Shown here one piece after another: positions 7,700-62,002 of a DNA stretch of 64,000 nucleotides. The stretch's first letter is position 1. The number at the start of each line of letters is the position of its first letter. The position numbers and the translations under genes are program-made. Below the pieces are notes generated by a model. It had not been told where the DNA came from. It did not search any database and saw only the letters and a list, made by a program, of their open reading frames with translations. This DNA is from a phage. The stretch lies in the sequence record PZ476263.1; one strand, 5' to 3'.

Positions 7700-8209
7700 T
7701 TAAAACGCCTCCCCATAATCTTCATCATCTTGTTTAGCCTCTGGACGCTTAAATTTAAAATCCGTCCCCATGTATTCGGCAAGATAATCAATATTTAAAG
7801 ACCACTCTTTTTGACTACGCTCTCGCCATACATCAAATTCAGACTTCAAATATTCAATTGCTTCTTCACGAGTGATCCCATTAACTTTCATAAACTGACG
7901 GATCGCTCGTTCAAGTTTACCGTTCTTTTCAGCAAGACCTGGATGATGGAATTCATGACAAGGTGGACAAAGACACATCAAACCAACAAGCTTAACTTCA
8001 TCATTCTCGAATATCCAATCCTCATGACATTCTACCGGATGTTTACGTCCATTGCCACCCTGACCACCACAAATTTGACAGTGATGGTTGTGCTCTGCAT
8101 AACATTTTCGACGAACCTTGTCCCAACCTGCTTGCGTAAGATAAGAACGAAGGTTAGTATTCCAAGCTGTCTTTGGAATTACACAAATCTTGTGCTTAAT
8201 ATTTTTCAT
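7700..8209 (-). CDS. zinc-binding (HNH-like) protein, putative
   Basis: Cys/His cluster HNHHCQICGG...CHEDW...CLCPPCHEFHH. Confidence 0.3.
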   Translation of the reverse strand: MKNIKHKICVIPKTAWNTNLRSYLTQAGWDKVRRKCYAEHNHHCQICGGQGGNGRKHPVECHEDWIFENDEVKLVGLMCLCPPCHEFHHPGLAEKNGKLERAIRQFMKVNGITREEAIEYLKSEFDVWRERSQKEWSLNIDYLAEYMGTDFKFKRPEAKQDDEDYGEAF

Positions 8210-8430: not shown

Positions 8431-8772
8431 TCACTTGTTAACTATTGCAAGCATGTTACGCGGCATCTTGATAATGCATGAATCTTCCATATTGAACTGA
8501 TCAAGATAGTCAGATAAAACACAGTAGTGATGCCAATCATAATCACCAAAGAAGATTTCAATCTTTGTGATACGATCAATAACAGGATTATCGCCAACAA
8601 CCTTTTCTAAAAGCAACCCTTCAAAAATATATTCCTTATCTTTGTAAAATGTACAAAGCTTTGATGGGATGTTCATTGCCCAGCGATCACGATTTTCTGA
8701 GTTTTCAAATCTGAACAATCCAACATCTTCAACCATATCAACTGCACGAATTTCAAGAATGATTTCTTTCAT
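8431..8772 (-). CDS. hypothetical protein
   Basis: 113 aa ORF. Confidence 0.35.
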   Translation of the reverse strand: MKEIILEIRAVDMVEDVGLFRFENSENRDRWAMNIPSKLCTFYKDKEYIFEGLLLEKVVGDNPVIDRITKIEIFFGDYDWHHYCVLSDYLDQFNMEDSCIIKMPRNMLAIVNK

Positions 8773-9245
8773 TAGTAAAGGTCCTCAGAGTAAAGTTCTT
8801 TCCTGTCCTTAACGACTTCAGGATCGACTTGATTAGCATATGTTGCAATAATCATTGCTTCTTCACGAGTCCAATAATTTGAGTATTGGTCGATAAATCC
8901 TTGGTCGTCACCACAAACATGGCGCGACACAAGTTTACCACTAACTTGATCAATAACTTCAGCCATATCTTTAGAATAATGACGAGCACCAGGAATAACT
9001 AGTGCACCACCATCTTTTAATTTAAAACGATTAGCTGCACAAACAATTATTCGTTGAAACTTCCGATCTTCGTACCAATGAGCGATCTGCCAACAGATTT
9101 CAGGAACATTGTTCAACACATCCTCTTCAGTATATTTAGTAAAATCACCATAAGAATTCAATTTTGCAGCCAAACTTTCTGGAGTCTCGCGTTGCAATGC
9201 TTTATCCAGCAAGGCCAAACGTTCTTCAAATGTTAACTTGGTCAT
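8772..9245 (-). CDS. hypothetical protein
   Basis: 157 aa ORF. Confidence 0.35.
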
Positions 9246-9443
9246 TTAGTTTCTCCAATAGATATTTTTGAATTTTTGCATTTTCCAAAGAACTTCAAAA
9301 TACGGCATTGCATAATAAGATATACCATCTTTTGTATACTCTCCGCAGGTACTAAAGCCTTCGGGATATTTTTTAAAGATGTTACCCTTTCTGATCTCTT
9401 CTTCAAGCCACTCAGGATCCGCCCTCAAAAGTTTAAAGTACAT
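9246..9443 (-). CDS. hypothetical protein
   Basis: 65 aa ORF. Confidence 0.3.
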   Translation of the reverse strand: MYFKLLRADPEWLEEEIRKGNIFKKYPEGFSTCGEYTKDGISYYAMPYFEVLWKMQKFKNIYWRN

Positions 9444-9454
9444 AGTTCGTCTCC

Positions 9455-9658
9455 TTATCGTTTAATATACTTGGAAGGACATGATCCTGCAAGTGATTTT
9501 CTGACTTCTGCGGAATTTCTTCCATCCGAATAAACACATACCTTTTTATTACCGTCACGATACTCATCTTCTAGGCTCAAGGTTTGAGATCCCTTGCAAT
9601 TGCCAACAAAAAACAATGTCATTGTTGAAACCACTAAAGCAGCTGCTATGTTTTTCAT
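9455..9658 (-). CDS. small lipoprotein (signal peptide + lipobox)
   Basis: MKNIAAALVVSTMTLFFVGNCKGS: hydrophobic signal followed by lipobox Cys; 67 aa. Confidence 0.5.
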   Translation of the reverse strand: MKNIAAALVVSTMTLFFVGNCKGSQTLSLEDEYRDGNKKVCVYSDGRNSAEVRKSLAGSCPSKYIKR

Positions 9659-9721
9659 TTACCCTCTCCTCTTTGATTTGATGGATACATCATATTATAA
9701 AACAAACCTCGTGTCAACACA

Positions 9722-9751
9722 TAAAAACAAAAAACCACCCCAAAGGGTGGT
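9722..9751 (-). terminator. intrinsic terminator
   Basis: ACCACCC-caaa-GGGTGGT hairpin; minus strand has a U-rich run after it; lies downstream of the gene ending at 9764. Confidence 0.55.
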
Positions 9752-9763
9752 CTATTTTAAAAA

Positions 9764-10030
9764 TCATTCAGTGTAATTTACGTTCTCTTCGTTATCCTGA
9801 ATGTTATCTTTTCGTGGGTTTGGTGTCAGATCCAAATGTGCCAACTTAGTGCCTTCAGGTAAATCATTTAAGCTGTATTCCACATTAACCAGTTGACCCG
9901 TCAGTTCATCCATTTTGTTAGAGATGTAAGCTGCAATTGAACGGCCTTCAAGAGTCGCCAGGTATTTCAGTTTCTGATAAGTAGTGTCGTTGAAATCAAT
10001 ATGCATTTTTATCCCCTTTATTATTTTCAT
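9764..10030 (-). CDS. hypothetical protein
   Basis: 88 aa ORF. Confidence 0.35.
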   Translation of the reverse strand: MKIIKGIKMHIDFNDTTYQKLKYLATLEGRSIAAYISNKMDELTGQLVNVEYSLNDLPEGTKLAHLDLTPNPRKDNIQDNEENVNYTE

Positions 10031-10702: not shown

Positions 10703-11062
10703 TTAATTTTTAAAAGTTTTTTCGATCAGGGCGATAGCTTCTTTCCAGTTAGTTTCATCAACACGAAGACTCATATAATGCTGTTCCGTGTTGTCAACCA
10801 CTTCTTCAGTAACTTCTTCAAAGAATTTAAATTCTTCAGGAAGGATCTCAAAATAATCACCGCCTCCTGAATATGCCCTTTTTATGCTGCCGTTTGGAAA
10901 AACAACTGAACAAACACTACCGTAATCATCTACTAATTCCAAAACTTCGAATTGACCACCATTGTATGCAATCTTTTGAATAAGATCCTCGTTGTGAACT
11001 GAAGCATTTTTAAAATCACGAATAGTGTCGACCTTAAGTTTATATTTCTTTCCGATTTTCAT
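10703..11062 (-). CDS. hypothetical protein
   Basis: 119 aa ORF. Confidence 0.35.
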   Translation of the reverse strand: MKIGKKYKLKVDTIRDFKNASVHNEDLIQKIAYNGGQFEVLELVDDYGSVCSVVFPNGSIKRAYSGGGDYFEILPEEFKFFEEVTEEVVDNTEQHYMSLRVDETNWKEAIALIEKTFKN

Positions 11063-19064: not shown

Positions 19065-19140
19065 GGCCCTTTAGCTCAGTGGTTAGAGCAGGCGACTCAT
19101 AATCGCTTGGTCGCTGGTTCAAGTCCGGCAAGGGCCACCA
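19065..19140 (+). tRNA. tRNA with CAT anticodon; anticodon stem and acceptor resemble enterobacterial tRNA-Ile2 (lysidine) rather than elongator Met
   Basis: GGCCCTT acceptor, GCTC/GAGC D-stem, GGCGA-CTCATAA-TCGCT anticodon arm, TTCAAGT T-loop, encoded CCA. Confidence 0.8.
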
Positions 19141-19157
19141 CTCAATAGTTTATTTAC

Positions 19158-19249
19158 AAGATCATTCAGTAATTAAGCGAATGCCGGAAGCAGAACCGGA
19201 TCAACAAATGCGTACGGGTGTCATCGCCACCTAGCAACTGAATGATCTT
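19158..19249 (+). other. long stem-loop RNA element (13-bp perfect inverted repeat flanking 66 nt), followed by U-run; possible terminator or small RNA
   Basis: AAGATCATTCAGT (19158-19170) and ACTGAATGATCTT (19237-19249); internal CCGG-aagcagaa-CCGG hairpin. Confidence 0.45.
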
Positions 19250-19332
19250 TTAAATTCTCTTAACCTCATAAAATCCTTGACATAATAAGAAATTCCTGAT
19301 AACATCTCTATATCGACTTAATTGAGGTGCTT

Positions 19333-19707
19333 ATGCCTAAAGCTGAAATCGTTACTAGAAAACGGGGTCGGCCTACTACAGAGGAAAGTATCGCTATCAA
19401 CACCGAGAAGGCGATTCTTCATGCTCGTTCAGAGTTTGCAAGACTTACTCCTCAGGCGATTAAGACTCTGGAAGGTCTACTCACTTCCGGTACAGAGAAA
19501 GTTAAAGAAACTACTGCGAAGTATATTCTTGAACAGGCTGAAAAAGCTAACAATCTGTACACGATGGAAGATAATGAGGAAGATTTAGCGGGAGGTTCAA
19601 CTTCTGCGGATTCTGATACTCATAAAGGCCCTTCTGATGTATTTAAGGATGCAATTCCTCTTACTACTCAAATCAGAGAGTATAAAATTGCAGAAGGTGA
19701 AAACTAA
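19333..19707 (+). CDS. hypothetical protein with N-terminal basic KRGRPT segment
   Basis: 124 aa from ATG at 19333. Confidence 0.4.
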   Translation: MPKAEIVTRKRGRPTTEESIAINTEKAILHARSEFARLTPQAIKTLEGLLTSGTEKVKETTAKYILEQAEKANNLYTMEDNEEDLAGGSTSADSDTHKGPSDVFKDAIPLTTQIREYKIAEGEN

Positions 19708-19728
19708 AGGCTCTTAGGGGCCTTTTAT
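19707..19728 (+). terminator. putative intrinsic terminator
   Basis: AGGCTC-ttag-GGGCCT hairpin followed by TTTTATT. Confidence 0.4.
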
Positions 19729-19946
19729 TAATAGTTCTTTTTAATGTAGTTGCTTGGTGTAATTTTTCGGCAGATGGCTGCAACCATCCTATCGATAACT
19801 CATAGTTAGTGCTGCAAACACTGGCTACCTTAAAGAGAATTTAACTCGTCGAATAAGGAAGATGCTGATCTCAAAGTGAGGTCACTTACCGCAAGGGGTG
19901 TGCATAGACTCCCGCTTCCGAATAGACTATGTGGCGAGATGTATTT

Positions 19947-20028
19947 GGGGACGTGGCAGAGCGGTCGAATGCGCCTGACTGTAAATCAGGTATCCCACAC
20001 GGTGGTTCGAATCCATCCGGCCCCACCA
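19947..20028 (+). tRNA. tRNA-Tyr (GTA)
   Basis: CCTGA-CTGTAAA-TCAGG anticodon arm, GGTGG-TTCGAAT-CCATC T-arm, acceptor CGGCCCC-A-CCA; overall like enterobacterial tRNA-Tyr. Confidence 0.75.
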
Positions 20029-20282
20029 AATTAAGAAGCAGGGTCGCTACCTGCAAGTCGTCGGACTGAGATTCCCTGAATAAGACCCGACTTTAAGGCG
20101 TACAAATGTTCGGTTTAAAGTCCCTTATCTCACAGTCGAAACGGCGCATCCTATTCAGCCGTGATGTGATGTAATCACTGACCTCTTTGAAGGATCATGG
20201 CATCCTATACAAAAAAAAAACCTGAATAATTTAGGTTTTAATGCCTGGGGGTTCGTAGCCCTATTACTAAGAGGACTTAACT

Positions 20283-20492
20283 ATGTTTACTATTAAAATT
20301 ATTGATATCGATGGAAATGAGACGGGTGTTTCAACAAGGCACTACAGATGGTACTCAAAAATGAATATTTTTGATGTGGAGGGTGGAGAATCTGTTTCTG
20401 TACCACCAAAAAGTCGTGCTTATGTAATGAATGACAAAGGAATAACCATCGGTAGATACACAAATACAGCGGATCAACGCGTTCTTAATTAA
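20283..20492 (+). CDS. hypothetical protein
   Basis: 69 aa ORF between tRNAs. Confidence 0.35.
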   Translation: MFTIKIIDIDGNETGVSTRHYRWYSKMNIFDVEGGESVSVPPKSRAYVMNDKGITIGRYTNTADQRVLN

Positions 20493-20493
20493 A

Positions 20494-20568
<75 letters not shown>

Positions 20569-20667
20569 AACACATATCCATCTGACGCGTTTATGGGGTT
20601 GACCTGATCAATCTTCTCCTAATTTCGTGTGAAGACATCATGATTGTTGGGATGGATAAACTTATTT

Positions 20668-20742
20668 TGGGGATTAGCCAAGCGGTAAGGCATCGGATTT
20701 TGATTCCGACATTCACTGGTTCGAGTCCAGTATCCCCAGCCA
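20668..20742 (+). tRNA. tRNA-Gln (TTG)
   Basis: TGGGGAT...AAGCGGTAAGG...CGGATTTTGATTCCG...GGTTCGAGTCC...CCCCAGCCA; very close to E. coli tRNA-Gln. Confidence 0.85.
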
Positions 20743-20747
20743 ATTAA

Positions 20748-20824
20748 CGGTGTGTAGCGCAGCTTGGTAGCGCATCTGGTTTGGGGCCAGAGGGCCGTTG
20801 GTTCGAATCCAACTACACCGACCA
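20748..20824 (+). tRNA. tRNA-Pro (TGG)
   Basis: CGGTGTG TAGCGCAGCTTGGTAGCGCA TCTGG-TTTGGGG-CCAGA ... GGTTCGAATCC ... CACCGACCA; very close to E. coli tRNA-Pro. Confidence 0.85.
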
Positions 20825-20900: not shown

Positions 20901-20914
20901 TTTGGTCTTTCGGT

Positions 20915-20923
20915 GATAAAATA
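20915..20923 (+). promoter_or_regulatory. late-type promoter element GATAAAATA (extended -10-like TGnTAAAAT)
   Basis: gTGATAAAATAc 17 nt upstream of spanin start; same motif recurs upstream of other late operons. Confidence 0.45.
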
Positions 20924-20939
20924 CTCAAAGGAGGTAATC

Positions 20940-21302
20940 ATGCCAGATTTTAAAAAATATTTATTCATTGCTATATTCATAGTGTTCTTAATTTCATCTG
21001 CTAAGCTTTATCTTAATCATGTTGAATCAGTAGGTTACGAAAAAGGTTTCAATGTTGCTAACTCTGCTTGGGTAAAAAAGGCAGGGGAGTACAAAAAGAA
21101 AATTGACGATACATATGAAGAAAACAAGCGTCTTAACGAGGAGCTTTCCCGATCCAATCAGGAAAAGATAAAGGATGAAAAGGCAAAAGAAGAAAAAATT
21201 ACCGATATGCAGATCGAATACTACAAGTCTGAAAAAGGTAAGGATGTCTTTGACAATAATGAAATAATTGACATATACAACGAATCCTTGGGGGTAAAAT
21301 GA
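20940..21302 (+). CDS. i-spanin-like protein (N-terminal TM helix + periplasmic coiled coil)
   Basis: MPDFKKYLFIAIFIVFLISSAKLYL TM followed by charged coiled-coil; ATG at 20940 after AGGAGG RBS. Confidence 0.5.
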   Translation: MPDFKKYLFIAIFIVFLISSAKLYLNHVESVGYEKGFNVANSAWVKKAGEYKKKIDDTYEENKRLNEELSRSNQEKIKDEKAKEEKITDMQIEYYKSEKGKDVFDNNEIIDIYNESLGVK

Positions 21303-21598
21303 GAAAAATATTTATAGCTTTCTTCTTTTGCTTTTTACTTTCCGGTTGTCAATCAGCAGAAATCTGTGGCCCTACGGAAGAAGTAACTATTGAGAAGATT
21401 CTTCCTAAACCTGATCTTGAACTCCTTGTCAAAGAAAAGGAAAAGAAGCTCATCCAGAAGGGATCTACTAATGCAGACGTTGGAAAGGTCATGAGTGATA
21501 ACAATCTTCGTTCCAATCGTATAGAGCGCCGTTGGGAAGGCTTAAGGACTTACGTTTGCAACAGTTTCAAAAATATCCCTAAAGAATACTGCGATTAA
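21299..21598 (+). CDS. o-spanin-like outer-membrane lipoprotein
   Basis: signal peptide with lipobox FLLSGC; ATGA overlap with upstream i-spanin-like gene. Confidence 0.5.
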   Translation: MRKIFIAFFFCFLLSGCQSAEICGPTEEVTIEKILPKPDLELLVKEKEKKLIQKGSTNADVGKVMSDNNLRSNRIERRWEGLRTYVCNSFKNIPKEYCD

Positions 21599-61450: not shown

Positions 61451-61597
61451 TTCACGATCCTCCCCAATACTTAAACAATTCTACACATGCGATTGTTGAC
61501 AGTATGAACCATATGGCACTTACAACATTTACATACAGGAATCTACAACCTGCCATAGAAACCATTATAAAGAGGCAGACAAAAGTTTTATAATCAA

Positions 61598-62002
61598 TCA
61601 TTTCTTACTCTCCTTTTTTGATTTTTCGTCTGCATCTACCTGATCTTCCGCCAGACTAATTATCTGATAAACTGTTTCAGGGTTTTGAAGAAACTCTGTA
61701 TATTTCTTGATCCGAACTACGAGTTTTGAACGAACTTTTCTTTCTCTTTCTACTTGCTTGAAGTAATGACCCTTCTGAGTATAAGTCCACGCATAGTAAA
61801 CTGTTTTTGCACGATGGCGGGTTGATTTTAATTTCTCCGCCAGCTCCGTATACGGGTCATTATCTGTGGGACCAAAAAGAAAAATTTGTGCAAAATTCTC
61901 TTTCATAATTTGAGATTCTTCAGGTGTCAGTCGTGGACACTCTTCGGAACCGTACTTAGGACCTTTTACCATTGGTTTTTTAGGATAAACTTTACTATTC
62001 AT
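61598..62002 (-). CDS. hypothetical protein
   Basis: 134 aa ORF. Confidence 0.35.
   Translation of the reverse strand: MNSKVYPKKPMVKGPKYGSEECPRLTPEESQIMKENFAQIFLFGPTDNDPYTELAEKLKSTRHRAKTVYYAWTYTQKGHYFKQVERERKVRSKLVVRIKKYTEFLQNPETVYQIISLAEDQVDADEKSKKESKK

Follow-up and report, generated by a model that had tools for sequence, protein, structure and literature searches.

The window, as we call the whole stretch of 64,000 nucleotides of phage DNA that was analysed (sequence record PZ476263.1), carries in its minus-strand replication/early arm a complete open reading frame at 9455..9658, exactly where the original prediction had placed a 67-aa protein. The gene lies among those for a DNA ligase, an exonuclease, an HNH endonuclease and an EndoVII homolog, which bears out the predicted position in the early arm as well. 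The coding parts and signals of the locus are the following:

9455..9658, minus strand: complete ORF of 67 codons plus stop, read from the sequence; member of phrog_4641
9458..9589, minus strand: mature domain of 44 aa (S24-R67) with the invariant C41 and C60 (C-x18-C), supported by the Cys pair in 121/121 members, the AlphaFold2 model and pN/pS; predicted four-stranded β-meander
9590..9658, minus strand: predicted signal peptide, residues 1-23 (MKN / IAAALVVSTMTLFFV / GNCKG), from hydropathy, the (-3,-1) rule and the A-x-A of the homologs
9596..9598, minus strand: codon of Cys21, the cysteine of the originally predicted lipobox, which falls in the alignment column of the family's A-x-A alanine at -3
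9666..9671, minus strand: Shine-Dalgarno sequence GAGGAG, 7 nt upstream of the ATG, read from the sequence
9689..9717, minus strand: sigma-70-like promoter, TTGACA-17-TATGAT (11/12 match), conserved in loci L001-L003
9732..9753, minus strand: rho-independent terminator, hairpin and U-tract (-14.9 kcal/mol, z -2.9), closing the upstream unit (gene 9764..10030)

The product (MKNIAAALVVSTMTLFFVGNCKGSQTLSLEDEYRDGNKKVCVYSDGRNSAEVRKSLAGSCPSKYIKR) matches phrog_4641 of PHROGs v4 over its full length (E 2.1e-19, 70 bits; residues 1-66 align with positions 1-67 of the 68 in the profile); this is its sole PHROG match, and scans of Pfam (E<=1), NCBIfam and PADLOC returned none. Homologs of the protein numbered 20 in a single-sequence search and 252 in a profile search, and three independent metagenome contigs encode a protein identical to it. 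Among 16 distinct phage loci, pN/pS is about 0.17 in the mature part as compared to 0.55 in the signal region; purifying selection is focused on the mature domain. The full-length family match, the 252 homologs and the low pN/pS of the mature part establish 9455..9658 as a genuine gene, not a chance ORF. Members of phrog_4641, for example PVP-SE1 gene 119, 4MG gp232, CR3_239, P7_269 and CHUUTOTORO_00830, share with it size, signal peptide, C-x18-C β-domain and genomic slot, and differ from it at the cleavage site, which is A-x-A in them but C-K-G in the window protein and its two near-identical relatives. PHROGs v4 labels the family as of unknown function and the literature on two phages carrying a homolog, P7_Pc and KP12, does not mention the gene; the window protein is one more member of a phage family that is already catalogued yet uncharacterised.

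The hairpin at 9753..9732 is the only terminator-like one within 4.5 kb. The gene had been described as a terminator-delimited unit of its own, which holds for its upstream border but not for its downstream one; no terminator follows 9455..9658 on its 3′ side and the next gene (9246..9443) begins 11 nt past the stop codon, so that 9455..9658 is the first gene of an operon rather than a self-contained unit. TTGACA-type promoters also lie directly upstream of the homologs in four other lineages, including the PVP-SE1-like phages, L007/L008 and L013, the last with a terminator as well; in the CR3 and phiTE group the homolog is translationally coupled to the preceding gene. From the gene's own promoter and those of the other lineages, early expression can reasonably be inferred. 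In loci L016-L020 a TTGACA-17-TATCAT promoter is found about 60 nt upstream of the start codon of the homolog; a conserved inverted repeat (GGCCCGGTG…CATCGGGTC) overlaps it, covering the spacer and the -10 region, and may be an operator or else a hairpin in the 5′ RNA. On the minus strand of the window, five sigma-70-like promoters with an 11/12 match lie between 8.3 and 12.1 kb.

The phages that encode homologs are Vequintavirinae-type myoviruses of 130-160 kb (ChuuTotoro, PVP-SE1, CR3, phiTE, 4MG, KB57), and a divergent subgroup of homologs occurs on rV5-type contigs. Throughout these phages the gene occupies the same slot, a variable island between the DNA ligase gene and the HNH/exonuclease/EndoVII/polymerase genes, and the mature domain is retained in phages of Klebsiella, Salmonella, Cronobacter, Pectobacterium, Serratia, Erwinia and E. 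coli. By these shared homologs and the shared slot, the window is classed as DNA of a Vequintavirinae-like phage. A reading as a T4-like phage, from an 81% nucleotide match to arn.2/arn.3, was ruled out by this synteny. The match stems from 8772..9245 (minus strand), a 157-aa T4_Y16D or arn.2-arn.3-like gene (phrog_839) with about 81% nucleotide identity to Dhakavirus and Tequatrovirus; since the remainder of the region has no comparable T4-like nucleotide match, recent exchange of this gene between Straboviridae and a Vequintavirinae-like phage is suggested. Also in the early arm are an HNH endonuclease gene (7700..8209, minus strand; phrog_5200, E 2e-69) and one for an FRD2-family protein (10703..11062, minus strand; Pfam PF03197, E 8e-20). 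Five tRNA genes (19065..20824, plus strand; Met-cat, Tyr-gta, Gly-tcc, Gln-ttg and Pro-tgg) separate the minus-strand early arm from the plus-strand arm with spanin, terminase and structural genes; the i-spanin (20913..21302, plus strand; phrog_4297) and o-spanin genes (21299..21598, plus strand; phrog_1267, “Rz-like spanin”) overlap by 4 nt.

A search for conserved partner genes found only two constant neighbors, both upstream, one RHH-like (88 aa) and one regulator-like; in the window, the terminator parts them from 9455..9658. The former, at 9764..10030 (minus strand; phrog_12907), has a weakly ParD/RHH-like N-terminus (E 1e-3) and is found one or two genes upstream of the homolog in nearly all syntenic phage loci examined; in the window, the terminator and the promoter both stand between the two. 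In PVP-SE1-type phages (L005 2984..3874; L013; L016-L022) the gene directly upstream encodes a true lipoprotein of 296 aa with an L-T-G-C lipobox and an SPFH/Band_7 domain (Pfam E 6e-21; phrog_200, “lipoprotein”). Another Band_7 gene is present at L038 5117..5959, and the Band_7 lipoprotein of the PVP-SE1-type phages has no match in the window by tblastn.

The N-terminus of the protein has the tripartite architecture of a signal peptide, as originally predicted, with an n-region M-K-N, an h-region of 15 residues (I4-V18; mean Kyte-Doolittle value about 2) and a c-region G-N-C-K-G; in the AlphaFold2 model of the precursor, residues 3-16 form a separate, detached helix. The von Heijne (-3,-1) rule is satisfied by C(-3)-K-G(-1)↓S24, and at the aligned site the large majority of the homologs in a 121-member alignment have A-x-A↓(S/A/T); 81 of the members have A, S or G at -1 in a fixed register, and the remaining 40 have the A-x-A shifted one residue upstream (A-F-A↓TVNTL). 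Cysteine at -3 and glycine at -1 are permitted at signal peptidase I sites, if rarer than alanine. On the strength of the rule and of the alignment to the family A-x-A, the signal peptidase I cut is most likely placed between G23 and S24. A GenBank annotator independently marked a sig_peptide feature on the homolog of PBES 02, and the UniRef name of a Yersinia homolog is “Secreted protein.”

The mature peptide is basic (pI 9.1). It contains exactly two cysteines, as does the mature part of all 121 aligned members and of all distant ones, with the C-x18-C spacing fixed; C41 and C60 are expected to form one disulfide in the periplasm. AlphaFold2 predicts the mature domain with a pLDDT of 90.7 as a four-stranded antiparallel β-meander (mature residues 2-12, 15-21, 26-32 and 40-43). 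A Foldseek search of BFVD returned uncharacterised family members only and no informative structural neighbor, and sequence profile matches in the PDB were discarded as chance β-hairpin words, such as “VYSDGR” of the CPAP G-box (E about 0.6). From these sequence features, the product is probably a secreted, soluble mini-protein of the periplasm and not a lipoprotein. The gene would open an early operon and be read from a strong sigma-70-type promoter of its own, the pre-protein would be exported via a standard Sec signal peptide, and signal peptidase I would cut after C21-K22-G23, thereby freeing a soluble, basic mini-protein of 44 residues into the periplasm, where the C41-C60 disulfide would staple the four-stranded β-meander; of these steps, we infer cleavage, disulfide formation and early timing.

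Only 24 clusters emerged when 1.84 billion representative proteins were searched exhaustively with HMMER. A broader profile detected the gene on chromosomes of Yersinia enterocolitica, Y. frederiksenii and Serratia, and a plasmid search found no copy of it. In Yersinia and Serratia the homolog, a gene for 65 aa, lies in an island inserted beside rsmI/lpoA, at whose edge it directly borders on a tyrosine integrase (about 540 aa):

Y. enterocolitica CP009456.1, 7198..9861 (L025): region in the Yersinia island
Serratia CP012096.1, 7680..9824 (L028): region in the Serratia island

The 65-aa proteins of the two genera are 69% identical to each other, as compared to 44% for the integrases, and 55-60% identical to the copies of PVP-SE1-type phages. 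The cargo of the Yersinia islands includes a type IIG restriction-modification enzyme or a DNA methylase, that of the Serratia island AbiTii and a VapE-type primase. The integrase-proximal module consists of two or three small secreted proteins with A-x-A signals (80/81 aa, 137 aa and 65 aa); the restriction-modification, AbiTii, VapE and resolvase cargo lies deeper inside the islands. The homolog is part of the conserved integrase-proximal backbone and not of the variable defence cargo, which is why its tie to defence is loose and suggestive only. Among more distant matches, two marine-type bacterial proteins (P0131, 512 aa; P0132, 522 aa) have two tandem C-x18-C domains behind MORN and PG_binding_1 regions. 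Both start with a signal peptide and have an internal, signal-peptide-like hydrophobic segment ahead of the tandem domains; such a topology seems inconsistent, and they may be fused gene calls. Two long HMMER matches, the papain-like P0136 and the BNR-repeat tail protein P0137, were dismissed as chance words, “ICIYS(D/N).”

What a protein of this kind might do in the periplasm is suggested by T4 Spackle (Sp, gp61.3), an early, exported protein of the periplasm with one disulfide that inhibits the gp5 tail lysozyme (PMC7677548). The likeness lies in the early phage gene, the export signal (cleaved in Spackle, predicted here) and the small, soluble, single-disulfide periplasmic product; the difference lies in the fold, as Spackle is an α-helical bundle of 75 aa whereas an all-β meander of 44 aa is predicted here, and no similarity between the two was found in sequence or fold. 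Spackle is the best analog for a possible mode of action, in which the protein would be a periplasmic binder or inhibitor and, at the stage of the envelope, would shield a cell that is infected or carries the island, by superinfection exclusion. Such a role, Spackle-like in location and logic but with an unrelated fold, is possible, and we put it forward tentatively. It gains indirect support from the early-type promoter in several lineages, the conserved mature domain and the islands with restriction-modification enzymes and AbiTii; protection at the periplasmic stage would be the most economical function shared by a mature surface conserved across genera, early expression and residence in islands. 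The broader idea behind the original prediction, an early, exported, envelope-directed accessory factor active in superinfection exclusion, is plausible.

A secreted periplasmic protein might equally serve other ends, as an antiholin-like regulator of lysis timing (as T4 RI), as a factor that inhibits or modulates some periplasmic enzyme of the host, for instance a peptidoglycan hydrolase or a protease, or as a “moron” contributing to host fitness, and to these roles together we assign a modest probability. They share all evidence on localisation with the reading preferred here; the copies of the domain beside MORN and peptidoglycan-binding domains in P0131 and P0132 hint at a link to the envelope or to peptidoglycan, and a place in the conserved backbone of resident islands suits a general envelope function. 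A regulator of lysis would, however, be encoded away from the lysis genes, with the spanins at 20.9-21.6 kb, and in no library searched did the protein match RI, Ivy, MliC or PliG-type inhibitors; the data at hand fit these roles and exclusion alike.

It is unlikely that the N-terminal segment stays uncleaved, as a signal anchor which would hold the β-domain on the periplasmic side of the inner membrane. Several GenBank records do call the homologs membrane proteins (“hypothetical membrane protein, 1 TM”), and C-K-G in the window protein is not the optimal A-x-A; yet the family strongly conserves the small residues at -3 and -1 in a signal region that evolves fast elsewhere, a sign that cleavage is under selection, and an h-region of about 15 residues is typical of cleaved signal peptides and not of transmembrane anchors.

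The original prediction proposed the protein as a candidate outer-membrane lipoprotein which, lipidated on Cys21, would mask the phage's own receptor after infection, as Llp and Cor do. This has become very improbable. The geometry seems suitable, as Cys21 lies directly behind the hydrophobic core; the absence of Asp at +2 would direct a lipoprotein to the outer membrane, the promoter is an early one, and the cysteine is retained in the closest relatives, P0001 and P0002. The PROSITE PS51257-type lipobox is [LVI][ASTVI][GAS]-C and calls for G, A or S at -1. The proposed lipobox (FFVGNC) reads V18-G19-N20-C21, and since Asn is not among the residues accepted at -1, the sequence does not match the PS51257-type regular expression; nor does the protein encoded by 9455..9658 match Pfam LPAM_1 at E<=1. 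As a positive control, the pattern was run on every ORF of the window. The o-spanin at 21299..21598 (…FLLSGC↓QS) both passed it and matched LPAM_1 and is, with its L-S-G-C lipobox, the only strong canonical candidate from that scan; one further ORF passed, a doubtful one of 49 aa (61452..61601, minus strand). Within the family, only three of the 121 members have a cysteine in the Cys21 column, namely the window protein and its two relatives P0001 and P0002 (93-94% identical), while the other 118 have mostly Ala there, as part of A-x-A; a single member of the 121 passes the lipobox rule, and does so at another position. The most likely reading of Cys21 is therefore that it occupies position -3 in C-K-G↓S24, and the apparent lipobox, as far as the alignment can tell, is an artefact of a lineage-specific change from Ala to Cys at the predicted signal peptidase I -3 position; it is the C-K-G substitution which creates the illusion. 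A cysteine behind a hydrophobic stretch should be taken for a lipobox only if the -1 residue fits and the family conserves it.

The T5 lipoprotein Llp resides in the inner leaflet of the outer membrane and binds FhuA (PMC9586334; bioRxiv 10.64898/2026.03.26.714494). The window protein resembles T5 Llp and T1/phi80 Cor in being a small, early, exported phage protein with a precursor of similar length, but unlike them it has neither a valid lipobox nor a conserved Cys+1, and no similarity to the Llp or Cor families was found in PHROGs or Pfam; moreover, a soluble protein of the periplasm could not take up the outer-membrane position of Llp. Had a receptor-masking lipoprotein been confirmed, it would have been a routine analog of Llp and Cor.

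One may speculate, with doubt, that the family represents a new class of Sec-secreted, single-disulfide β-mini-proteins which block the delivery of phage genomes from the periplasm, by binding of the peptidoglycan hydrolase of the tail tip or at another periplasmic step of entry; in the lytic Vequintavirinae they would act in early exclusion, in the islands of Yersinia and Serratia as captured defence against these phages. A well-conserved, strongly constrained and probably secreted mini-protein, presumably expressed early, is common to a whole subfamily in therapeutic use (rV5 and PVP-SE1 relatives) and to resident islands of Yersinia and Serratia. If it is indeed a periplasmic exclusion factor, it would join T4 Spackle as another example with a structure of its own and would be relevant to the design of phage cocktails from Vequintavirinae.
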